Assembly (NCBI GenBank): GCA_024279425.1 | Contig: JAJRRO010000133.1 | Location: 20,759-84,758 of the forward strand | DNA from: Bacteroidota bacterium | GTDB lineage: Bacteria; Bacteroidota; Bacteroidia; Flavobacteriales; Flavobacteriaceae | Direction of reading: 5' to 3' | DNA length: 64,000 nt | Part shown: positions 1-64,000 of the stretch, one piece after another | How the letters are laid out: each line of letters starts with the position of its first letter | Numbering within the stretch: position 1 is the stretch's first letter | Made by a program: the position numbers and the translations under genes | The notes under the pieces: model-generated | Told to the model about the DNA's origin: nothing | Databases searched by the model: none | The model's input: the letters and a program-made list of their open reading frames with translations, nothing else

Positions 1-2648
1 GCAAACTCTTCAAAAGACAAAGAATTTGCAAGTCCGGCAGGCATCATTGAATTCTCCAATTCCTCTCGCTTTTCTATGTCTTCTATTTTAAGAGTTGACA
101 CTTGCCCAGCTATATTTCGAATGACAAGTTTCTCGGCGGACTCCTCAGATACAAACCCCGAATAAGACTTGCCATCTTTAGTGCCGATAAGGACTGAAGC
201 AAACCCTTGGGAGATAGAGGCATTGGGCTTGAGAATTGATTCTGCAATCTGTTCACGGTTCATTATGGATCCTATCTGTCCCATAAACGGCCCTTTCATA
301 AGCTCTTCTTTTTTAATACTATGACAGGCAACACAACCTTGTTGTGTGAAAAGTTTTCCCCCAAGTTCAGCGTCCCCTTTGATCTTCGCCATGGCCAGCA
401 TAATATCTTCTATGGAGCTTTTTCTTATTTGTCCTTTTCTGTTCTTGATTTTTTCTAAATCCACCTGTGCTTCCGAATCGGCATCTTCTACATCTGATTC
501 ATCTCCGCCAAATTCGATGATTCCCATGCGATGTCTGGCATTTAAATCGGAGAAAAAGTCCTTCCCTTTGGTATTTGCTTTTTTCCATACATCAACTAAA
601 AATTCCTTGATTATTCCGGAACCTTCCCAGGTAATTCCCTTATAATAAGGACCGTGGGTATCAGGACGCGTGCTCCACCACCAAGACCCATCATAGGGGG
701 CCTCTTTTTTATATAATCGGGATATTGTGGTAAGTATTTCTTTTTTAAAATCGTCATCGTCTGTTTCCCTATAGGCTTTTATAAGGCCATTTACGGCAGT
801 GGTATCATGCATATGCCTAAGGGTCCACAATGCCAATTTAGATTGCCTGGAGCCCAAGGCCTCAACACTTTCTTCAATACCATCCAATTTCAATAATGTA
901 CGAACAGCCAAATGGGGAAGTATCACGTTTGCGTTAGGGGTCGCATGCGGGCCTTCAATACCTTTTTCTGGAGCCTTTAAAGCTACTGGCACAGGTACTT
1001 TCAATAATTCCCGTATTGCACCTTTGTTTTCAAGTCTACCCAACCCAACTATCGCTATCGCTCTAACCCTTTCAGAAGGATCTCTTAATGCCTCAAGGAA
1101 TGGCTCCAAAGGAACATCTGAAATATTTGATTTACGGTCGGCCAAGGCTCTTAATACAAATTCACGAGTACTGGAATTCTTAGTAAGGGACACTAAGTTT
1201 TCAATGCCTTCAATGCCAGCGATTTGAGCATATGTAAATATTCCTGCAATCTGGGCTTCTAATCTCAAACGTATATCCGAAGCAATTTTCCAGACCGCTT
1301 CTGAGGCATTTTTCTTATTTCTGGTCAACAATTCCTGTTGGGCATGTAATCTTATTTTTGCACTTTCAGAGGTTAAGAGTGTGGCCAGTTTATTTTCTGA
1401 TAATTCTTCCAAATCTGCAAAAGGTTTGTATTGCCATCCTTGGGGAACCACTCTTACTACAAACCCCTTATCTGGACTACCAGAATACCCGGCCCCATCC
1501 CAGGCCGACATATATATTCTTCCGGATGCATCTATGTCCAAATCCGTGATTTGGGGCAGTCCAAGAAATTCCTCCTCCTTTTGTATAAAACTGGGACCAT
1601 CTTCCCTTACCCTATGGATATACAAGTGCGACCTTCCCCAATCTGCCATCATGGGAACATTGTTGTATTTGTCCAGCCAATTGGGATCGTTCATAAAGAG
1701 TGATCCTGCGCCAGATCCCCCACCTACGTCTATAAGGGCCGGAAGTATTTCATCCGTAAAATTCTTAAACAATACAGGATACCCATATTCCCCTGATTGT
1801 ATCTGATGGATAAAACGGATATTCCAACCTCCGCCATCATTGGTATTGCCTCTTGTAAAAATATTCATATAGGGATCAATGGCCACATCATAGATATTTC
1901 GAAGGCCATGAGTATACACTTCCATTTCGGTACCATCTGGTCTTACCCTCAAAATACCACCACCCAACATGGTAAGCTCAGTACCTTCGCGATCAATGGC
2001 TCCATGAAAACCAAAATCACCTACTGCAATATAAATCCAGCCGTCTATTCCCATTTGAATACCGTTGGTAGCATGATCAGTACCCCGGCTCTGCAAAAAT
2101 TTTGGGGAACTGATGTGTTCCAGGATTGGTTTAGATGGGCCATCAGCTTTGCCATCCTGATTTTCATCTTCAAATACTACTAAATCCATTCCAGTGGCCT
2201 TACCCGTTTCTTCTGAGAATTGCGTGTGTAAAACGTAAAGTTTATTGCCTATTGGAAGGATTCCCCTCGGATTATCAACGGGTGCATAAATAGAGTGGGA
2301 ATCCATAAATCCATCATTATCGCAATCCACCAATTTAACAATACTCCCTTTACCCGGATCCTTCCCCAAGGAGCCTATCATGTCGACCCCCACAAAAACA
2401 TCTCCATTGGGTGCCACTGCCAAACATGCAGGACTAGGAGTTATATCTTCTCTTGCGAATCCGTTCACTTGGATATCGGATGGCCAATTCAATGATTGAA
2501 CAAGGGAATCGTTCCATTGCCGAAAGGTATCGGAAGGACCTTGGGGAGAGCAAACTTGTTTTTCCTCACCGCAACTTACCGCGGTAAGTCCTATTAAAAA
2601 TGCGACAAGAATATGCGATTTCTTTCTGAGTACTTGGCCTATGGTCAT
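1..2648 (-). CDS. Large lipoprotein with a beta-propeller (glucose/sorbosone-dehydrogenase-like) region, HEAT repeats and a C-terminal c-type cytochrome domain (PVC-type heme-binding CxxCH protein). Its 3' end runs off the window start.
   Basis: Minus-strand ORF from ATG at 2648-2646 that stays open to the window edge, so it is absent from the ORF track. N-terminus MTIGQVLRKKSHILVAFLIGLTAVSCG is a lipoprotein signal. A C-terminal QGCVACHSIKKEEL heme-binding motif is encoded near 307-321. The plus-strand ORFs listed between 346 and 2495 are antisense shadows of this gene. Confidence 0.6.
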   Translation of the reverse strand, partial: MTIGQVLRKKSHILVAFLIGLTAVSCGEEKQVCSPQGPSDTFRQWNDSLVQSLNWPSDIQVNGFAREDITPSPACLAVAPNGDVFVGVDMIGSLGKDPGKGSIVKLVDCDNDGFMDSHSIYAPVDNPRGILPIGNKLYVLHTQFSEETGKATGMDLVVFEDENQDGKADGPSKPILEHISSPKFLQSRGTDHATNGIQMGIDGWIYIAVGDFGFHGAIDREGTELTMLGGGILRVRPDGTEMEVYTHGLRNIYDVAIDPYMNIFTRGNTNDGGGWNIRFIHQIQSGEYGYPVLFKNFTDEILPALIDVGGGSGAGSLFMNDPNWLDKYNNVPMMADWGRSHLYIHRVREDGPSFIQKEEEFLGLPQITDLDIDASGRIYMSAWDGAGYSGSPDKGFVVRVVPQGWQYKPFADLEELSENKLATLLTSESAKIRLHAQQELLTRNKKNASEAVWKIASDIRLRLEAQIAGIFTYAQIAGIEGIENLVSLTKNSSTREFVLRALADRKSNISDVPLEPFLEALRDPSERVRAIAIVGLGRLENKGAIRELLKVPVPVALKAPEKGIEGPHATPNANVILPHLAVRTLLKLDGIEESVEALGSRQSKLALWTLRHMHDTTAVNGLIKAYRETDDDDFKKEILTTISRLYKKEAPYDGSWWWSTRPDTHGPYYKGITWEGSGIIKEFLVDVWKKANTKGKDFFSDLNARHRMGIIEFGGDESDVEDADSEAQVDLEKIKNRKGQIRKSSIEDIMLAMAKIKGDAELGGKLFTQQGCVACHSIKKEELMKGPFMGQIGSIMNREQIAESILKPNASISQGFASVLIGTKDGKSYSGFVSEESAEKLVIRNIAGQVSTLKIEDIEKREELENSMMPAGLANSLSFEEF

Positions 2649-2776
2649 TAAATACGTGCCTTATCAATTAAAAATTGGTTCGGATTTTGATTTTTTAAAA
2701 TCGGCGTGAAAATACAATTTTGAAGCCAATGCAAAAAAAAAGGAACTCAAAAAACACCTCATAGAGCAGTTCTTTA

Positions 2777-4951
2777 CTAAAAATCAATGGTGGCCCCCAA
2801 CAAAAAGTTGGCGCCAGCCTGTGGGTAATACCCGGCACCTTCAATAGTCGTTGTTGTATCTGGAATAGACCATGTATCATCATAGGTATAGAAATACCCG
2901 TTTGAAACATACTTGGCATTAAATATATTATTTAACAATGCAGACAAGGTAATGCTCTTGACCACTGAATTTGCTTTAATGATATATTGCACGTTAAAAT
3001 CGGTTTGAGAATAGGCGTCCAGTATTGAACTTTTAGCATCTATATTGCCCATATACTGTTTGCCCACATATTTACTCAACACTGAAATCTGTAATTCCTC
3101 CCTTGGGTTGTATGAAATTCTGTTTCCTAATACAATATCTGGTGAAAATGTGATATTGGTATTTCCCAAATCCTGCAACACCCCATCCCTCTGAAAAACG
3201 AACTCTTTATTTTTATTTGAGCTCAGAGCCATATTAGGGCTTATGGAGAATTTACTTCCCAAAGCGATGTTAGCATCAATCTCTAATCCAAAACGATAAC
3301 TATCACCTACATTGGCCCTCAATGGAGCACCTACATCATTCAGTTCCCCTGTAAGCACCAACTGATCCTTATAGTTCATGTAATACAAATTGGTGTTCAA
3401 TTGAACATCTGAAGAGATGTAACGCCACCCCAACTCATAATCATTCAATTTTTCGGGTTTAGGATTGCCGTTTTCATAGTCATTTCGATTGGGCTCTCGA
3501 TTTGCCACAGCATATGATAAATAGAACTTATTGTTTGAATCCAAATCATAGGTAATCCCCGCCTTGGGGTTAAAGAAGTTGAACGTGTCATCAACCAATC
3601 CTGTATCATCGCCATTGGCCTCATAACCTACTCCTCTGTATTGTAGGTCCCCAAAAAGACTCCAATTATCATTCAGTTTATAATTGGCCTTTGCGAATAC
3701 ATTAAAATCGGTCTTTTTGGAGGAGTCGTCATAGTATCTATCCCGAATGCTACTATTTGGAGCGAATTCCGCCCAAATCACCTCGCCAAAATGATCGCCC
3801 TCGTACTTGTTCCATCCACCTCCAAGAATCACGTTTAATTTTTCATTGGTATAATTGGCAGAAAAAACGGTACCGTAAAAATCATTATCCAACCATCTTC
3901 GACGAATTAAGTCTGTGGTATTTACCTCAGCTCCATTAACGGTCAATGGTTGAAAGCCGTATGTGGCAAAATCATCATCTTCCTTGAATTGTTCAAAGAA
4001 ACCACGTCCTCTGGTATAATGCAATGCCAGATTTGTGCTCCAACTATCATTCAATTGCTGGTTCCATAGAAGTTGGGCATGGTTTTGCTTATAATTGTCA
4101 ACTTCGTTTTCGTAAAATTGGGTGTTCCCATTTTCATCTATATAGATTCCGGATGGATTGAAAGTCCGATCGGACTCTAAAGTGACAGCATCAATACCAT
4201 ACCAAGCTTGATAAGTAATTTCATGGCCGCCAAAAAGTACGGCTTTCAATAGCGTATTTTCTTTTTTGAAAGCGCCTTGTAAGAAATAGGAATCCAACTT
4301 TGAAGAGGCTCTATCAATATATCCATCAGAACTGATTTTAGATAACCGTCCTGAAATCTCAACATTGTCCTTTAGCAAACCCGTACTAAACCTTATATTG
4401 TTTCTCAAAGTGTTATAACTCCCAACCGATGTCGAAATTTGACCAAAGGCCTCTTCGGATACACCATCGGTCACGATATTCAGGCTCGCCCCAAAGGCTC
4501 CCGCCCCATTGGTCGATGTGCCTACACCACGCTGTAGTTGCAAACTTTGGGTCGACGAAGCAAAGTCTGGCATGTTAACCCAAAACGTGCCGTGCGATTC
4601 AGAATCATTATAGGGAATTCCATTAATGGTCACGTTTACCCGTGTGGCGTCGCTTCCTCGAACACGTATTCCGGTATACCCTATACCTGCCCCTGCATCG
4701 GATGTGGTGACCACTGCAGGCATAAAATTCAATAGAATGGGAATATCCTGCCCCAAATTCCTAGGCTTTAATTGTTCTTTGGTAAGATTTGTAAATGTTA
4801 CCGGTGATTCTTTAGTGACCCGAATGGCAGAAACAAAGACTTCATCCAAGTCTATTTTTTTACCTTTTATCGAATCTATTGGTGTTTCTTGGGCCGATAG
4901 ACCCATGGCCAGGCCAATAAGGCCCATTGTTGTGAAAATAGATGATTTCAT
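2777..4951 (-). CDS. TonB-dependent outer-membrane receptor under TPP riboswitch control (candidate thiamine or thiamine-precursor OM transporter)
   Basis: Signal peptide MKSSIFTTMGLIGLAMGLSAQE from ATG at 4951 (ORF-track start 5047 is upstream of the likely start). Plug-domain motifs (DEVFVSAIR, TGIRVRG). Terminal residue F typical of a beta-barrel. THI-box riboswitch lies immediately upstream on the same strand. Confidence 0.85.
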   Translation of the reverse strand: MKSSIFTTMGLIGLAMGLSAQETPIDSIKGKKIDLDEVFVSAIRVTKESPVTFTNLTKEQLKPRNLGQDIPILLNFMPAVVTTSDAGAGIGYTGIRVRGSDATRVNVTINGIPYNDSESHGTFWVNMPDFASSTQSLQLQRGVGTSTNGAGAFGASLNIVTDGVSEEAFGQISTSVGSYNTLRNNIRFSTGLLKDNVEISGRLSKISSDGYIDRASSKLDSYFLQGAFKKENTLLKAVLFGGHEITYQAWYGIDAVTLESDRTFNPSGIYIDENGNTQFYENEVDNYKQNHAQLLWNQQLNDSWSTNLALHYTRGRGFFEQFKEDDDFATYGFQPLTVNGAEVNTTDLIRRRWLDNDFYGTVFSANYTNEKLNVILGGGWNKYEGDHFGEVIWAEFAPNSSIRDRYYDDSSKKTDFNVFAKANYKLNDNWSLFGDLQYRGVGYEANGDDTGLVDDTFNFFNPKAGITYDLDSNNKFYLSYAVANREPNRNDYENGNPKPEKLNDYELGWRYISSDVQLNTNLYYMNYKDQLVLTGELNDVGAPLRANVGDSYRFGLEIDANIALGSKFSISPNMALSSNKNKEFVFQRDGVLQDLGNTNITFSPDIVLGNRISYNPREELQISVLSKYVGKQYMGNIDAKSSILDAYSQTDFNVQYIIKANSVVKSITLSALLNNIFNAKYVSNGYFYTYDDTWSIPDTTTTIEGAGYYPQAGANFLLGATIDF

Positions 4952-5044
4952 CCGTAAAATATATTTACGAATAAAAGGGGCTATTATTCTTGTTAAAAAT
5001 TGATTTTTGGTTTCTTGTAAACCGATTGAAATTCCAAATAAGCG

Positions 5045-5140
5045 CAACGCACATCCCTTAGCAGCATTACCCGCCCAGGTTCCTTGGGTATAATCTCAGC
5101 CCTCCGATAGCTATCGGCAAGCACCCCTTTGAGATGGCAC
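5045..5140 (-). promoter_or_regulatory. TPP (thiamine pyrophosphate, THI-box) riboswitch in the 5' leader of the TonB-dependent receptor
   Basis: Minus-strand sequence GGGGTGCttgCCGATAGCTATCGGagGGCTGAGAttatACCCaagGAACCTGggcGGGTAATGCtGCtAAGGGA. It matches the THI-element conserved blocks in order: GGGGTGC, CTGAGA, ACCC, GAACCTG and GGTAATGC...AGGGA. A variable P3 hairpin lies between the first two blocks. The core spans about 5054-5127. Confidence 0.8.
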
Positions 5141-5233
5141 AAATGTACTATTGAAAAATAACTCATCATAACAAAAAATGAATTACTTTCAAAAAATTGG
5201 ATATAGCCGTTCTTAAACTGAGGTATTCCTTTG

Positions 5234-6772
5234 TTAAACCTGATGGGTAGGTTTCAACAAATCGTTGACGGTCTTAACCGGATTAAAGGTCGCAAGTGGC
5301 ACTTCAACAAAAATAGAATTCCAAAATGCCATGGCACCATTCCAAAGCCCAGGCAATTCCAATGCTTTCAACTCCCGGCCTTCTTTGGTCTTACTTGATA
5401 TAAAACCCTGTTTGTGGTCCACAAAATTCAAAAGATTGTACTTTTCTCCATTAAAGTTCTTTACTCCACATACCAAATCAACCGGATTGAAATGGGTCGA
5501 ATTTTTGAGAATATCAACTTGCTTTTCATTGGACATGTCTATTTGAGCCGATTCAATAATCTGTAAAACAATATGATTATGTGCATTCTTTATCCAAAAT
5601 GGCCCGCCGCCAGGTTCGCCCTCATTTTTGACCATTCCACAAATTCGGATAGGCCTATTAATTTTATCTTTCAATATCTCAATCTGCTCACCAATGCTAA
5701 AACCGGAATACTTATCAATAAAGCGGACATTAAGTTCATTTTCCAAAAAGGATTTGATTTCTGTCATCAACTGAGCCGACAAATTATTTTCGTCCAATAA
5801 TTTGGCATATTCAAAGGCCTTCTCCTGTACATTTAAAAGTAATCCCGCCAACATTTTTTTACTGTTTGCCAATTCCTCCTGAGCGTCTGGTACTACAACA
5901 TTATCTATGTTCTTTATAAAAATAATATCGGCCTCTTCTTCGTTAAGATTTTCTATCAGTGCCCCATGGCCTCCTGGTCTAAAAAGTAAAGACCCATCAG
6001 AATTACGAAATAAATTATTCTCCAAATCAACGGCGACTGTATCGGTGGAAGATTTTTGATAGGAGTATCCTATGTTAAATGAGGTTTCGGTCTCTTTTGA
6101 CAAGCGCGGGTTCACTTCCTTATATTGGGCGCTGAACATCTTCATATGTTGTTCGGAAATAGTAAAGTGCAGGTTAGCCTCATCACCCATTTTAGCATAA
6201 TTTGCCGCTTCCCTTAGATGTTCTTCAAAGGGAGTCGCACTATGGTCTCCATAATTGTGGAAGGGCAAAAGGCCTTTAGGATAAAATCCGTAATTCAACC
6301 CTCCTTCCAACATCATTTCCTTTACAAAAAGATAGATTTCTTCGTCCTTGTTGGCCGCCTTTCCTTTTATTCTTTCCTGAACTACATCATAAAAGGAAAA
6401 ATTCGTAAGGCCTTGACTAAAAAGGCGTATATCGGAATCATCGGTCCGATCAATGTAGTCTTCCAAACTTTCCTTACTTGGGTCGTAAACATCCAAAAAA
6501 TTGAACAACGTCTTGAACATTCTAGAGGCAGCACCAGAAGCCGGAACAAATTTAAGAATGGACAACTTGTCCATGGATCCCTCAAAGGTATTGATTAAGG
6601 CTTTTTGTTCCTTAGCTGTAAATTTGCTTATTCCATTACCTATCACAGCGGCATTTTCCAAATCGACAAAGGGTATTCCCTCTTTAAAAATTTCTACCTG
6701 ATTCCTTACTTTTTCTTTGGTTATACCCTTTTCGGCTAATAACTCTTGGTCTTTTTCGGTCAGTTGCATCAT
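5234..6772 (-). CDS. DUF4301-like protein with a UDP-sugar pyrophosphorylase (UDPGP)-like nucleotidyltransferase fold
   Basis: 512-aa ORF. Three motifs resemble UDPGP-family pyrophosphorylases: KFVPASGAASRMF (the G-x-G-T/S-R-L/M nucleotide-binding loop), RPGGHGALI (P-x-GHG) and IKNIDNVVV (N-x-DN-L/V). Its start ATGATG overlaps the TGA stop of the upstream kinase gene (ATGA overlap). Confidence 0.55.
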   Translation of the reverse strand: MMQLTEKDQELLAEKGITKEKVRNQVEIFKEGIPFVDLENAAVIGNGISKFTAKEQKALINTFEGSMDKLSILKFVPASGAASRMFKTLFNFLDVYDPSKESLEDYIDRTDDSDIRLFSQGLTNFSFYDVVQERIKGKAANKDEEIYLFVKEMMLEGGLNYGFYPKGLLPFHNYGDHSATPFEEHLREAANYAKMGDEANLHFTISEQHMKMFSAQYKEVNPRLSKETETSFNIGYSYQKSSTDTVAVDLENNLFRNSDGSLLFRPGGHGALIENLNEEEADIIFIKNIDNVVVPDAQEELANSKKMLAGLLLNVQEKAFEYAKLLDENNLSAQLMTEIKSFLENELNVRFIDKYSGFSIGEQIEILKDKINRPIRICGMVKNEGEPGGGPFWIKNAHNHIVLQIIESAQIDMSNEKQVDILKNSTHFNPVDLVCGVKNFNGEKYNLLNFVDHKQGFISSKTKEGRELKALELPGLWNGAMAFWNSIFVEVPLATFNPVKTVNDLLKPTHQV

Positions 6773-7332
6773 TTGTTCAATAAGTTATCAATGTGTTCTA
6801 CAGCAGTTTTAAGGCGTGTTTTTTTATCCCCTTTTAAGATAACAAAATTCCTATTATGTTTCTCCAAGGTTTCCTTGAAATATAAAAACATACGTTCCCG
6901 CTCATTGGGTTTGTCTCGTAAATCATCCGCCTGCCACGGAATATCTATATATGTAAGAAAATAAAGGTCATACGAATTCGCTAAAGCATATTTCTCCAAA
7001 CTTGAATCGCAATATCCTAAATAATAAGCCTCGGAATACACCTTGGTCTCCAACAGATCAGTATCGCATACCAGCAAGTCAGAGGCTTTTTTGGCCAAAT
7101 CATTTTCCAAGCGCATTTGCCCTTCGGCAATGGGCAATAAATCCTGAGGTTCACAGGTCTTTCTTTCATTGTTCCATTTATCCTGTAGATACGCTCTGGC
7201 ATATTCCGGCACCCATACTGTATTATAATGCCTGGCAAGCTGTTCGGACAAGGTGGTTTTCCCAGTAGACTCAGGGCCAAATAACACTACTTTAACGACA
7301 TCTGAGGGTTGTTGTCTAAATTTTTCTTCCAT
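6769..7332 (-). CDS. NadR-type P-loop kinase (ribosylnicotinamide kinase-like ATPase, AAA_28)
   Basis: 187 aa. Walker A motif VLFGPESTGKTT close to the N-terminus, as in the RNK domain of NadR. Overlaps both neighbouring genes, which implies translational coupling. Confidence 0.7.
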   Translation of the reverse strand: MEEKFRQQPSDVVKVVLFGPESTGKTTLSEQLARHYNTVWVPEYARAYLQDKWNNERKTCEPQDLLPIAEGQMRLENDLAKKASDLLVCDTDLLETKVYSEAYYLGYCDSSLEKYALANSYDLYFLTYIDIPWQADDLRDKPNERERMFLYFKETLEKHNRNFVILKGDKKTRLKTAVEHIDNLLNK

Positions 7333-7925
7333 GCAAGGTAACCATATATGGCAATGAACGTAAATATAAGATACTGAATACTTGTAAACGTAAAACCTTT
7401 ATAAAAATATAAAGGGACGGAAATAATATCCCCAATAATCCAATAAATCCAATTTTCAATTTTTCGTTTTGCCATAAGCCACATACCCACAAAAAATATC
7501 GCCGTTGTCACCGTGTCAACATAAGCTGTCCAACTTGTCCATTTATCAAAGATTTGATACACCGCGTACACAAAAACCAAGGTTACAATAAATATAAGAA
7601 CCGATGTTCTTTGTTCCTTTTTTGTAGTTGAGGAAATAGGAGTAAAATGTGTGGCATCTACTTTCCGGGTCCAAATATACCACCCATAGACGCTCATAAT
7701 AAAATAATACCCATTAATGAGCATGTCCCCTATTAAACCCCACTGATAAAGTAAATATACATAAATGGATGTGCTGATCATTCCTGTTGGATACACCAGA
7801 ATGTTGTTCTGCTTTGAAAACCAAACGGATAATAACCCAAAGATTACCGCAACAATCTCAAGTACAATATGATAGGTTTGATACTCGGCGTATTGACTGA
7901 ACAAATCATCAAAAATGTGGCTCAT
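7287..7925 (-). CDS. pnuC: PnuC-family (nicotinamide riboside/Pnu) integral membrane transporter. Substrate uncertain: NR (PnuC) or thiamine (PnuT).
   Basis: 212 aa, about 7 TM helices, aromatic-rich W/Y motifs typical of Pnu transporters. Co-operonic with a NadR-like kinase, as in PnuC-NadR systems. Confidence 0.7.
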   Translation of the reverse strand: MSHIFDDLFSQYAEYQTYHIVLEIVAVIFGLLSVWFSKQNNILVYPTGMISTSIYVYLLYQWGLIGDMLINGYYFIMSVYGWYIWTRKVDATHFTPISSTTKKEQRTSVLIFIVTLVFVYAVYQIFDKWTSWTAYVDTVTTAIFFVGMWLMAKRKIENWIYWIIGDIISVPLYFYKGFTFTSIQYLIFTFIAIYGYLAWKKNLDNNPQMSLK

Positions 7926-8169
7926 ATTCGCTTCGGTCAGATTTCACAACTTTCATGTATAATAGACCCTTATCCATGAGCTCAAAAGCTTCCTTGATTT
8001 GCCTGTTCAAAACCGCCATTACTTCATCATATGTACCAAAGACTTGGGTACTGAGAGGGTTCTCTAAAATTGTAAGTCCCGATGCTCTCAATTTCTTTAT
8101 AAAATCGACGATATGCTGTTCAAAATCATCTTGAAGTGGTGAAAAAGTAAGTTCAACTGAAATTTTCAT
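7909..8169 (-). CDS. MTH1187/YkoF-family (DUF77, thiamine-binding-protein-like) small protein
   Basis: Start taken at MKISVELTFSPLQDD (internal Met of the 101-aa track ORF). The pattern I-x-V-E-L-T-x-x-P-L ... GTYDEVMAVLNRQIKEAF matches the ferredoxin-like MTH1187/YkoF family. Its 3' end overlaps the pnuC start by 17 nt. Confidence 0.55.
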   Translation of the reverse strand: MKISVELTFSPLQDDFEQHIVDFIKKLRASGLTILENPLSTQVFGTYDEVMAVLNRQIKEAFELMDKGLLYMKVVKSDRSEYEPHF

Positions 8170-8210
8170 TATACGGTTGTTGGTTGTGTTGGTAAAACTA
8201 CTAAAAACAA

Positions 8211-8852
8211 TCAACTGTCACCCAAACGAAGAGCATATACGCAGGTAAAACCCTCAAATTCCAAAAATTGGATATCATATCGCGATATATCGCCTTTATA
8301 AATAACCTGCCCTCTAATTTTGCTGTCTGAAAAATCAAAGTCTTCAATGTTGATATGCTGCATAAAGCTAAGCCCTTCGATTGCATAGATTTTATAAAGT
8401 GATTCCTTACAACCCCAAACTATAGTGAATTTACGTACCAGGTCTTTTGTGCTTTTAATATGGCTATAAGCTTCAATCTGTGTGAATTTATGAGCGATTC
8501 GCGTGATTTTTGGACGTTGCATTTCAATATCAATGCCTACCTCAATAGTATCACTCACAATAATTCCGGTAAATTGATGGGAGTGTGTTATGCTAATATG
8601 TCTGCCATCAATCAAATGTGGCTTACCCACCTTGTCATAGAAAAGATCCTTATCTTCATAATCGGCTTTGGCCATTAAATGCCGTATACTCAAAAAACCC
8701 CTACGGTGCATTTCAGATTTCATACCGTCAATTCGGTCTTGACAATGCGGGGTTAAATGAATCCCCTGTGAAAGCTCGTCCTCGGATTCTTCAATCTTCC
8801 AAATATAAACCGTAACTGTCTGGTTTACCTGTATTGTTTTATAAAGAGGCAT
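8211..8852 (-). CDS. 4'-phosphopantetheinyl transferase (Sfp/AcpS superfamily)
   Basis: The [11 protein letters not shown] motif matches the (W/F)-x-x-KE-S-x-x-K PPTase signature. Start taken at MPLYKTIQV (ATG 8852) rather than the longer track ORF. Confidence 0.75.
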
Positions 8853-8872
8853 GGTGTTATTTAGGATATTCG

Positions 8873-8880
8873 TAACTTTG
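8873..8880 (+). promoter_or_regulatory. Bacteroidetes sigma-A -7 box (TAnnTTTG) upstream of ahcY
   Basis: TAACTTTG sits 58 nt upstream of the ahcY ATG. No Shine-Dalgarno sequence, consistent with Bacteroidota. Confidence 0.35.
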
Positions 8881-8937
8881 CGACTCTTTAAAAAGAACTG
8901 CAATAATCAAACAACGAAAGTAAAAATAAAAAAGGAT

Positions 8938-62435: not shown

Positions 62436-63281
62436 ATGGGGAAATTAAGAACAAAAGTTTCGTTTCATTTAATAATGATATTGGGATTTATATTTATTTG
62501 TAATTCTGTTAAGTCACAGATATTTACTCCAAATAAGGGGAAATTTATTACTGTAAATGAAGCGAAAATATATTATGAAGAATATGGAGAGGGAAAACCT
62601 GTTATTCTTTTGCATCATTTTATGTCGACTGGAACAGATGGATGGTCGTCTTATATTCCATCACTTGCAAAAAATTACAAAGTTATTGTCCCAGACTTAA
62701 GAGGTCATGGAAAATCGACAGACCCAAAATCCAACAATCCTTGGAAAATAGATAATAGTGCATCTGATTTACTTGTTTTTTTAGATTCTTTGAATATCAC
62801 TAAAGTATCTGCAATCGGTGGAAGTGCTGGTGCTTCTACACTACTTAATGCAGCTACTGTTCAACCAGAACGTTTTGAGGCATTAGTGATAGTTGGAGGT
62901 TCTCCTTTTCGTAGCAAAGAATTCCGTGACTGGATTCTTAGAAGTTGGTCTGACGAGATTTCTACTGGTTTCATTGAACTTCATGGAAATGAAAAAGCTA
63001 ATATTCTTAATCGGCAATTTAGAGAAATTGCAAATCAATATCGAGATCATGAACTCACTCCTAATAGACTTAATAGGATAACAGCACGCACCTTAATTGT
63101 TCATGGAGATAACGACCCTATTATTCCTGTTGACTATGCTTGGGAGGTTTACAAAGCAATTTCTGACTCACATTTGTGGATTGTTCCTAATGGAGGTCAC
63201 TTACCGTATTTATACCCATCAAACAAATCTGATTTCACAAAACGAATTCAGGAGTTTCTTTTAACTCCAAAGAATGATTAA
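62436..63281 (+). CDS. Secreted alpha/beta-fold hydrolase (low-GC gene)
   Basis: Signal peptide, HGxG-like oxyanion region (LLHHF), nucleophile elbow GGSAGAS, C-terminal His. Confidence 0.75.
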   Translation: MGKLRTKVSFHLIMILGFIFICNSVKSQIFTPNKGKFITVNEAKIYYEEYGEGKPVILLHHFMSTGTDGWSSYIPSLAKNYKVIVPDLRGHGKSTDPKSNNPWKIDNSASDLLVFLDSLNITKVSAIGGSAGASTLLNAATVQPERFEALVIVGGSPFRSKEFRDWILRSWSDEISTGFIELHGNEKANILNRQFREIANQYRDHELTPNRLNRITARTLIVHGDNDPIIPVDYAWEVYKAISDSHLWIVPNGGHLPYLYPSNKSDFTKRIQEFLLTPKND

Positions 63282-63442
63282 AATGTAACTCAAATTATCA
63301 AAAGAATTAAAAAATTATAATAACGAAAGGCTAGTCGAGTAAGCCAGGGGGATTTCACCCCTAACTTCTCACAGAACCGTACGTGAACCTCTCGATTCAT
63401 ACGGCTCTTATTATGTAGTCAATAGTTAGGTCAACTGATAAC

Positions 63443-63516: not shown

Positions 63517-64000
63517 TTACGCCATCCTCTGCAACCAGGACTTCATATCAACCTCTTTGGCAATAATCGCTCTTAAATCGGTAATGGCAACCCGGTTTTG
63601 TTCCATGGTATCTCGGTGTCGAATAGTCACGGTCTCGTCTTCCAGCGTTTGATGATCAACAGTGATACAGAATGGCGTTCCTGCCGCATCCTGCCTTCTA
63701 TAACGACGGCCTATCGCATCTTTTTCATCATAGATTACATTGAAATCCCATTTTAGATCATCAATGATTTTATGGGCTACTTCTGGGAGTCCATCTTTTT
63801 TAACCAATGGCAGTACGGCTGCTTTGGTGGGTGCCAATACTGCAGGGAGTCTTAATACGGTTCTTGTCGTATTGTTTTCCAATTCCTCTTCTTGTAATGA
63901 ATGGGAGAAAATAGCCAAGAACATACGATCCAGACCAATGGAAGTCTCCACAACATAAGGCACATAGTTTTCCTTGAGTTCTGGGTCAAAATATTGCAAT
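63517..64000 (-). CDS. glyQS: Glycine--tRNA ligase (class II, dimeric type): C-terminal anticodon-binding part. The 5' portion lies beyond the window end.
   Basis: The C-terminal domain ...VLRLPAVLAPTKAAVLPL...TVTIRHRDTMEQ matches the GlyRS anticodon-binding domain. The ORF stays open to position 64000. Confidence 0.85.
   Translation of the reverse strand, partial: LQYFDPELKENYVPYVVETSIGLDRMFLAIFSHSLQEEELENNTTRTVLRLPAVLAPTKAAVLPLVKKDGLPEVAHKIIDDLKWDFNVIYDEKDAIGRRYRRQDAAGTPFCITVDHQTLEDETVTIRHRDTMEQNRVAITDLRAIIAKEVDMKSWLQRMA

Follow-up and report, generated by a model that had tools for sequence, protein, structure and literature searches.

The 64,000-nucleotide (nt) stretch of DNA analysed here, which is referred to as the window, is part of contig JAJRRO010000133.1, and its host is a Maribacter-like flavobacterium. 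The window carries a gene for a TonB-dependent receptor of 724 amino acids (aa), whose relatives in Maribacter and other Flavobacteriaceae are 76-94% identical. In the leader of this gene, on the same minus strand, lies an element of the THI-box or thiamin pyrophosphate (TPP) riboswitch family (Table 1). A first-pass annotation, made from the letters alone, had placed six THI-box blocks within positions 5045-5140, and all six were read there on the minus strand in the order it gave, the strand running from 5136 to 5054 as CAUCUCAAA-GGGGUGC-(P3 hairpin)-GCUGAGA-UUAU-ACCC-AAGGA-ACCUG-GGCGG-GUAAUG-CUGCU-A-AGGGA. The AUG of the receptor follows the end of the aptamer (AGGGA) after 102 nt rather than the 95 nt or so first estimated and, as the annotation had also said, no Shine-Dalgarno sequence precedes it. 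The receptor gene is the only one clearly behind the element in the window.

A conserved element below the Rfam threshold

A default Rfam scan of the whole window at gathering thresholds returned no TPP element, the sole match being a group II intron domain at about 63.3 kb. When positions 4900-5300 (401 nt) were scanned permissively, a full-length match to the TPP riboswitch model, RF00059, was obtained at 5036-5138 (minus strand) with 34.6 bits (E = 3.1e-5), as compared to a gathering score of 54.3 bits. The covariance-model scan proposed in the annotation as a check thus came out sub-threshold. The low score is a property of the clade, because five orthologues searched at a permissive threshold also scored below the gathering value (34.1-47.3 bits). 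Part of the shortfall is trivial, being due to a long P3 and to the lack of the optional P3a; two further deficits are structural and concern P1 and the pyrophosphate pocket. The miss in the default scan was set aside as a refutation of the element, since the permissive scan and the comparative data show it to be real.

For comparison, 80 loci from species-representative genomes were fetched via homologues of the receptor. A THI-box regular expression applied upstream of the receptor gene gave strict matches in 70 of the 80 loci and relaxed matches in 78, i.e. 79 copies including that of the window. Our own covariance model, R1, was built on a MAFFT alignment of 39 copies whose P3 is short. 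This model found a single copy in the window (5053-5136, minus strand, 84.7 bits) and one copy per locus in the relatives (80/80), always just upstream of the receptor (81 of 81 sources with the window included). Elsewhere in the 1.117 Mb searched there was no further copy (next match, 13.9 bits), and canonical TPP aptamers were absent from the 1.1 Mb of flanks around the relatives' loci. In a MAFFT alignment made independently of structure, the pairing of P2, P3, P4 and P5 holds in 89.8% of the cells versus 32-55% with the partners slid, and double-sided changes occupy 44 cells where about 16 were expected, a level reached in none of 500 shuffles. An alignment fitted to the model, which leans towards the structure, has 8 pairs with double changes among 78 distinct sequences (0/500 shuffles). 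The compensatory changes in P3 and P5 are well above those of the controls. The element is a real, conserved riboswitch of the thiamine family, and its match goes beyond chance.

The half of the aptamer that senses the pyrimidine (P2, P3, the CUGAGA T-loop and ACCC) is canonical. CUGAGA, UG and ACCC are invariant in all 79 copies (ACCC is exact in 78, with one AACCC variant), P2 is 100% paired, and P3 has three pairs with compensatory changes. P4 (CCU:AGG) is essentially invariant, with one compensatory change from C-G to U-A, while P5 shows compensatory changes and its loop, L5, reads GUAAUG in 77 of the 79 copies.

Among the helices P1-P5 expected by the annotation, P2-P5 are supported, but no convincing P1 was found. 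The tail preceding GGGG is the only sequence available as the 5' strand of P1, and it offers 9 nt or fewer because the transcript is predicted, from the spacing of the -7 promoter box, to start at RUCUCAAA. In the Rfam alignment, three of the five P1 pairs are non-canonical; with P2-P5 enforced, the tail finds a partner of three base pairs (bp) in the window and heterogeneous partners in the relatives. A frequent 3-bp pairing of the tail with J2-4 (UCA:UGA) was rejected, as the J2-4 base varies (U/A/C/G) and is G in the window. At the canonical place of the P1 3' strand, directly after AGGGA, there is instead a small hairpin, weak in the window (3-4 bp) and, by inspection, longer and different in the relatives (GGC/GCC, GCGA/UCGC, AUGCG/CGCAU, GUGCGC/GCGCAU). 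The UUUGGA that follows this inserted hairpin is a candidate for the P1 3' strand, and might form 6 bp with one bulge with the tail (U3C4(U5)C6A7A8A9). This pairing was not picked by constrained minimum free energy (MFE) folding of the window leader, and both strands are invariant, so that no covariation is possible. Still further downstream, at the place of the hairpin GGUUU-ACAAG-AAACC, inspection of the relatives revealed different stems (GUUUC/GAAAC, GUCC/GGGC). The annotation had taken a sub-threshold Rfam score, or a failure to form P1-P5, as a refutation of the element; these yardsticks were too strict, because the comparative data show a real one.

Table 1. Positions of the receptor gene, the riboswitch and the parts of its leader, and neighbouring features of the window
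Feature	Position	Strand	Basis or remark
TonB-dependent receptor, 724 aa, regulated gene	2777-4951	-	Signal peptide, Plug PF07715, beta-barrel PF00593
Receptor AUG	4951-4949	-	
CUAUUUUC, coding region	4934-4941	-	Possible partner of AGAAUAAU
Start-codon hairpin, UUUUAUUCGUA(loop)UACGGAUGAAA, 11 bp	4946-4976	-	RNAalifold, MFE
GCCCCUUU, proposed long-range helix, 3' strand	4974-4981	-	Invariant in essentially all leaders
AGAAUAAU	4983-4990	-	Invariant
Hairpin GGUUU-ACAAG-AAACC	5009-5023	-	MFE in both states
UUUGGA	5033-5038	-	Conserved as UUUGGA/CUUGGA/CAUGGA in window-type leaders
Small hairpin directly after AGGGA	5042-5052	-	MFE, inspection
Aptamer core, GGGG to AGGGA	5054-5127	-	RF00059 match, model R1 match, covariation
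Variant arm CCU-G-GGCGG-GUAAUG-CUGCU-A-AGG-GA	5054-5079	-	Alignment to Rfam consensus, comparative counts
P4/P5 arm	5079-5054	-	Aptamer core
AGGGA	5058-5054	-	Sequence
GGUAAUGC	5071-5064	-	Sequence
GAACCUG	5082-5076	-	Sequence
J2-4	5085-5080	-	Aptamer core
ACCC	5089-5086	-	Sequence
J3-2, CUGAGA	5099-5094	-	Aptamer core; sequence
P3 hairpin	5122-5099	-	Aptamer core
P2	G5127-5125:C5086-5088 plus U5123:A5091	-	Aptamer core
GGGGUGC	5127-5121	-	Sequence
AAAGGGGU, J1-2/P2 strand	5130-5123	-	Complementary to GCCCCUUU
5' tail CAUCUCAAA	5128-5136	-	Nearly invariant across species (RUCUCAAA)
-7 promoter box TACATTTG (TAnnTTTG), Bacteroidota-type	5140-5147	-	Sequence and conservation
PPTase, Thiamine_BP-like (PF01910, 86-101 aa), PnuC-like, AAA_28, DUF4301	5234-8903	-	
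Open reading frame off the window edge, >880 aa	1-2645	-	
Intron_gpII	63334-63409	-	Full-length, 61.5 bits

The variant P4-P5 arm

The arm of the Rfam consensus reads CCUg-AU-ccGG-uUAAUa-CCgg-CG-uAGG-GA, whereas that of the clade reads CCUG-(5 bp)-GUAAUG-(5 bp)-A-AGG-GA. In the window it consists of a 3-bp P4, a G5076.A5059 mismatch, a continuous 5-bp P5 and the loop GUAAUG. The equivalents of U59, A80 and G60 (the last being G5076) are kept, and the canonical J4-5 AU and J5-4 CG, which contains C77 and G78, are missing, with CG present in none of the 79 copies. The pair that stands in place of the canonical loop is standard in all 78 sequences (GC 57, GU 13, AU 7, CG 1) and in 39 of 39 of the short-P3 set, with three to four pair types across both sets. 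Next to it, there is a G.A in 36 of 39 sequences, and 71 of 78 have a non-standard combination at this position. In the canonical TPP riboswitch, high conservation in this arm falls on U59, A80, G60, C77 and G78. The last three coordinate the pyrophosphate-holding metal, and only G78 directly touches the pyrophosphate itself (PMC3764141). Because C77 and G78 are absent from 79 of 79 copies, TPP is not assured as the specific ligand. The designation as a TPP riboswitch controlling the receptor holds insofar as a functional element of the THI-box/TPP family is present in its leader, but the element belongs to a variant subclass and is not a canonical TPP aptamer.

Compared to the RF00059 riboswitches of E. 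coli thiM and thiC and A. thaliana THIC, the window element has the same three-way-junction layout, the P2/P3 helices with the CUGAGA T-loop, a P4/P5 arm with a UAAUG loop, the ACCC and AGGGA strands and an association with thiamine genes; occlusion of the start region is a further likeness to E. coli thiM. It differs in its lower score, in the replacement of J4-5 AU and J5-4 CG by a base pair plus G.A, and in having no convincing P1, no optional P3a and no Shine-Dalgarno involvement.

To look beyond the orthologues, metagenome contigs were scanned with a pattern spaced so as not to match the canonical form, yielding at least 120 matching loci. Among the matches listed, receptor homologues (34-85% identical to the receptor of the window) lie downstream in 93 of the 100 loci with a readable downstream gene. 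Seven loci have other genes behind the arm: a thiS-thiC operon following a Bacteroidota-like promoter in three (L093, L108, L133), a ThiT/YuaJ thiamin transporter in one that has a Shine-Dalgarno sequence and a terminator (L143), a double ABC ATPase in another (L164), and other TonB receptors in two (L174, L088). Their aptamers score 40-55 bits against RF00059, six of the seven lying below the gathering score. The contigs with the variant arm include both Bacteroidota-like and Firmicutes-like ones, the latter bearing Shine-Dalgarno sequences or terminators. The variant arm is a cross-phylum subclass tied to genuine thiamine genes. In L088, two aptamers stand in tandem upstream of a TonB-receptor-like open reading frame (ORF): a variant-arm copy at 2541-2636 (plus strand, 55.1 bits) and, about 75 nt later, a canonical one at 2711-2807 (plus strand, 67.1 bits) with J4-5 AU and the G78 equivalent (CCUGAUCCGGAUAAUGCCGGUGCAGGGA). 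This tandem suggests two-input logic on different thiamin species. Receptor homologues of 34-37% identity with a Bacteroides-like geometry (AUG 2 nt after AGGGA) also carry the variant arm. A link of four loci (L084, L104, L119, L171) to the Bacteroides OMthi-pnuT-tnr3 operon was considered and dropped, as no pnuT or tnr3 is found downstream.

A group of TPP riboswitches with a changed P4-P5 arm has been mentioned by McCown et al. 2017 (RNA 23:995; PMC5473149), who refer to unpublished work (Roth et al. in preparation). These variants were reported to bind thiamin, thiamin monophosphate (TMP) and TPP about equally, i.e. they "cannot substantially discriminate" among them, and to occur in many bacteria, sometimes in a genome that also has canonical TPP riboswitches (PMC5473149). 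Our searches of the literature available to us found no fuller publication or supplement on them. The altered arm described here matches their description, and so do its wide occurrence (Flavobacteriaceae, other Bacteroidota-like and Firmicutes-like contigs) and its co-occurrence with a canonical aptamer in L088. The published text differs in coming without a sequence definition, gene associations or taxa, so that identity with the form having G.A and a 5-bp P5 rests on description. The window element fits the P4-P5 variant subclass on these terms.

Promoter, start-codon hairpin and the proposed switch

Just upstream of the aptamer lies a TAnnTTTG box which, going by the Bacteroides promoter consensus, we take to be the promoter. 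It is found in 75 of 78 orthologous leaders, and in 73 of them it ends 12-13 nt before GGGG. The predicted transcript start is at about 5134-5136, immediately 5' of the aptamer. A sigma-70-type sequence (TTGAAA-16-TATGAT, 5192-5165, minus strand) was not used, because the promoters of Bacteroidota depart from this consensus.

Across leaders, about 96 to 212 nt separate the aptamer from the AUG. Whatever precedes it, essentially every leader ends in an invariant block of 45 nt, AGAAUAAU-n-RCCCCUUUUAUUCGUA(loop)UACGRAUGAA (also written AGAAUAAUnRCCCCUUUUAUUCGUA..UACGRAUGAA), which a regular expression matched in 71 of 79 leaders, the rest having CCCCC for RCCCC. When RNAalifold was applied to 45 window-type leaders, the sole common structure was an 11-bp hairpin with the AUG in its 3' strand. 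In the window, the AUG is paired with U4971, A4972 and U4973 (pairing probability 0.97-1.0), and across leaders the 11 pairs show pair-compatible changes only (UA to UG in 18, AU to GU in 1). AGAAUAAU can pair either with UUAUUC of the 5' strand of this hairpin or with CUAUUUUC in the coding region. The AAA of the aptamer tail together with GGGGU, both within AAAGGGGU, would provide the 5' strand of a long-range helix with GCCCCUUU.

In the unconstrained MFE structure of the window leader, AAGGGGU of the aptamer pairs with GCCCCUU beside the hairpin. When the aptamer nucleotides were blocked, as a proxy for the ligand-bound state, AGAAUAAUAG paired with CUAUUUUC at +12 to +19, which gave a long, two-part stem whose internal loop holds CCCC. 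Opening the region from -18 to +12 was on average 2.3 kcal/mol costlier with the aptamer blocked (by more than 1 kcal/mol in 60 of 77 leaders, and by zero or less in 3 of 77), and the difference was lost (mean -0.09) in a control with GGGG changed to CCCC in the aptamer strand (G4-to-C4). An either/or model, in which AAAGGGG:CCCCUUU would free the AUG fully, was rejected in favour of a graded opening-energy model, as the hairpin persists in both states. According to the graded model, transcription would start at the aptamer and the AUG would sit in the conserved hairpin. With ligand bound, this hairpin would be extended by AGAAUAAU and the early coding region, leaving CCCC in the internal loop. 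Without ligand, AAAGGGGU would pair with GCCCCUUU beside the hairpin, removing the lower stem and lowering the energy needed to open the ribosome landing site. This model accounts only in part for the invariance of AGAAUAAU and of the upstream AAAAUCAAUUUUUAAC.

Judged by such modelling, the element is likely a translational OFF switch that acts via sequestration of the start region. The annotation had presumed either start sequestration or attenuation; the former is the best-supported mechanism because the AUG lies in a conserved hairpin and no intrinsic terminator was found in the window leader. The OFF direction agrees with the OMthi TPP riboswitches of Bacteroides, which repress translation with the mRNA level unchanged (bioRxiv 10.1101/867226); for BtTPP2, translational repression by thiamin has been demonstrated (PMC5613172; bioRxiv 10.1101/867226). 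The pairing of a riboswitch with a TonB-dependent receptor is already known in Bacteroidota (PMC5613172), and the Bacteroides OMthi/pnuT systems (Costliow and Degnan 2017, PMC5613172; bioRxiv 10.1101/867226) resemble the window in having such a receptor behind a THI-box leader with no Shine-Dalgarno sequence. However, their elements are detected by RF00059 and precede the start codon by less than 5 to about 21 nt, whereas the element described here fails RF00059 and stands much further from the AUG, with the invariant platform between. Theirs belong to an OMthi-pnuT-tnr3 operon (tnr3 encoding thiamin pyrophosphokinase), while the window receptor stands alone. Genetic evidence for thiamin transport exists only for BT2390 of B. 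thetaiotaomicron (PMC5613172).

Gene context, ligand and rival readings

From its leader, we infer that the receptor is a riboswitch-controlled importer of thiamin or a thiamin-related compound, and the label OMthi-type, given to it in the first-pass annotation, is plausible by analogy with Bacteroides. In about 30 of the 80 loci, a GFO/IDH/MocA-family NAD-dependent oxidoreductase (324-342 aa) is encoded on the same strand directly downstream of the receptor, starting, for example, 43, 7 and 14 nt after the receptor stop codon in L012, L023 and L033, respectively. We know of no thiamine-related role for this family; the enzyme may process the imported compound. In three genomes (L016, L024, L070), the stop codon of the receptor gene is followed after 2-3 nt by the start of a gene for an NMT1/THI5-like protein (PF09084, 302-304 aa) without an obvious signal peptide. 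This gene is apparently coupled translationally to the receptor, a hint that the pyrimidine moiety of thiamin is involved. Three further loci, all Kriegella (L025, L030, L032; 3/80), have a gene of the PnuC family about 83 nt beyond the end of the receptor gene; its product (198 aa) is about 25% identical to the PnuC of the window and is a candidate PnuT-type thiamin transporter.

The annotation had also tied the neighbouring loci to thiamine metabolism, a view that the gene order does not bear out. The string from PPTase to DUF4301 lies 5' of the promoter of the element and has no THI-box of its own. It adjoins the receptor, in the same order and divergent from the adenosylhomocysteinase (AdoHcyase) gene, in 39 of the 80 loci; the fetched flanks of the others lack it. 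The window PnuC passes the NCBIfam model for nicotinamide-riboside PnuC and the AAA_28 protein matches the NadR kinase domain; by sequence, the two look like a nicotinamide-riboside PnuC plus a NadR-type kinase. The PnuC, kinase and DUF4301 genes are not under the element. The DUF4301 protein of the window (512 aa, 721 bits to PF14134) has no function assigned, and its fixed linkage to the PnuC and kinase pair may be a lead.

Some other features were noted in passing. An unrelated ORF, at 1-2645, begins about 130 nt beyond the stop codon of the receptor and is cut off by the window edge; its sequence suggests a beta-propeller of the glucose/sorbosone dehydrogenase type, followed by HEAT-like repeats and, at the C-terminus, a cytochrome c motif (CxxCH). 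About 25 loci across genera (e.g. L021, L060-L068, L076-L080) have a lipoprotein-like ORF of 137-149 aa, without a Pfam match, that is convergent with the receptor gene at its 3' end. Just downstream of the receptor in a Cellulophaga metagenome-assembled genome (L051, 2473-2529, plus strand), a whalefall-1 RNA was found near threshold (32 bits versus 37, E = 1.9e-4). The group II intron domain V/VI (gathering score 40, E = 1.2e-9) is intergenic, between an ORF whose translation reads as the C-terminal part of a glycyl-tRNA synthetase (63517-63999, minus strand) and an alpha/beta-hydrolase-like ORF (62436-63281, plus strand). No reverse-transcriptase/maturase ORF of at least 120 aa was found near it; an intron without an ORF, a fragment and a co-opted domain are all conceivable.

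We think it likely that the element is a functional variant riboswitch of the TPP family, that it discriminates little or not at all among thiamin, TMP and TPP, and that it shuts off a receptor for thiamin or a thiamin-related compound by the translational mechanism proposed above. Several points weigh against this reading. The RF00059 score is sub-threshold, no convincing P1 was obtained, and the MFE structure of the aptamer alone has no TPP shape (z = +0.63); an uninformative MFE is usual for ligand-dependent folds. The correspondence to the variants of McCown et al. is by description. As to the platform, double compensatory changes are absent among the 45 leaders, which are too invariant for covariation; the hairpin around the AUG is present in each of the two computed states; opening the start site is expensive in both (10.2 versus 12.5 kcal/mol), which makes the computed switch modest; and what speaks for the long-range helix is complementarity, conservation and nearest-neighbour energies. 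The low score, the lack of P1 and the unremarkable fold would also suit a fortuitous likeness to a TPP riboswitch, or a relic of one that has decayed and lost its function. However, the element is kept at the same position in 80 of 80 species-level genomes, with compensatory changes, a conserved promoter box at a fixed distance and an invariant expression platform, and this possibility is negligible because there is one copy per locus and the copies covary. A different doubt concerns the mechanism: the riboswitch might be identified correctly and yet act on transcription, by Rho-dependent or other non-canonical termination (e.g. at a GCCCC-ended helix followed by UUUUAUU), or on mRNA decay. 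Its distance from the AUG fits such control, as spacings above 40 nt correlate with transcript-level control in Bacteroides (bioRxiv 10.1101/867226); moreover, GCCCCUUUUAUU resembles the 3' half of a terminator and terminator-like hairpins occur in the variable middle region of some orthologous leaders. Nevertheless we consider it unlikely, since the window leader has no intrinsic terminator, the sole partner for GCCCC is located about 145 nt upstream, and the part conserved in all leaders is the hairpin containing the AUG.

With regard to the ligand, the thiamin moiety, bound with little or no discrimination among thiamin, TMP and TPP, is most likely by analogy with the published variants, and it is supported because the same arm precedes thiS-thiC and ThiT genes. 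An ordinary TPP-selective riboswitch, in which the arm recognises the pyrophosphate in another way (e.g. through G5076 and metal ions at the G.A mismatch) and the low Rfam score reflects nothing but the missing P1, the long P3 and clade-specific drift, seems to us improbable. It would account for the other conserved positions being canonical, including the equivalents of G60, U59 and A80 and loop L5, and for the presence of the arm before thiS-thiC biosynthesis operons, where TPP is the usual signal; TPP is also normally the dominant intracellular thiamin species (PMC5473149). Against it stand the loss of C77 and G78 in every copy, their place being taken by a covarying Watson-Crick pair, the role of G78 as the sole residue directly touching the pyrophosphate in the canonical structure (PMC3764141), the reported failure of P4-P5 variants to discriminate (PMC5473149), and the tandem of L088, which would be redundant if its variant and canonical aptamers had equal specificities. 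Much less probable still is a non-phosphorylated, pyrimidine-bearing precursor or breakdown product as the ligand (hydroxymethylpyrimidine (HMP), aminomethylpyrimidine (AmMP) or formylaminomethylpyrimidine (FAMP)), imported by the receptor. An intact pyrimidine pocket next to a lost phosphate pocket, the NMT1/THI5-like gene (a pyrimidine-moiety family) coupled to the receptor in three genomes, and the oxidoreductase behind it in about 30, which suggests chemical processing of the cargo, are in its favour. But the retention and strong conservation of the P4-P5 arm with its L5 loop would be needless if the pyrimidine alone were bound; the sole published statement on such variants reports thiamin binding (PMC5473149); and both the thiamin transporter ThiT and a PnuC-family gene, as associated genes, fit thiamin. 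The HMP pyrophosphate (HMP-PP) riboswitch (thiS motif; Atilho et al. 2019, PMC6478431) likewise has a thiamine-pathway specificity other than TPP and occurs in tandem with TPP riboswitches, but it is a tiny, terminator-embedded aptamer unrelated in sequence and structure, and is not a candidate family for the window element.

What is new here is the definition of the arm, the evidence for under-detection by Rfam and a testable model of a Shine-Dalgarno-independent platform. The arm now has a concrete sequence definition, CCU-G-(5 bp)-GUAAUG-(5 bp)-A-AGGGA, together with its gene associations (receptor, thiS-thiC, ThiT), and the invariant start-codon hairpin block offers a testable model of how riboswitches control translation in bacteria without Shine-Dalgarno sequences. 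A bolder proposal, which we put forward tentatively and regard as rather doubtful, is that the flavobacterial leaders are phosphate-blind sensors of the thiamin moiety (thiamin or a pyrimidine-bearing precursor) combined with an undescribed Shine-Dalgarno-independent platform, in which the P2 strand of the aptamer invades the invariant, bipartite start-codon hairpin over a distance of about 145 nt. If this were true, cells with variant and canonical aptamers together, as in L088, would read two different signals of the thiamin pool. The receptor and its frequent GFO/IDH/MocA or THI5-like partners would then allow marine Flavobacteriaceae to salvage thiamin-related compounds, by a route that Rfam-based annotation would systematically have overlooked.

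The basic picture of the receptor as a riboswitch-controlled, thiamine-related importer is unchanged. Because the RF00059 gathering score misses the window element, the five orthologues and six of the seven metagenomic aptamers, vitamin B1 regulons are under-annotated in marine Flavobacteriaceae, and probably elsewhere, which matters for predicting B1 auxotrophy and B1 exchange in the ocean.

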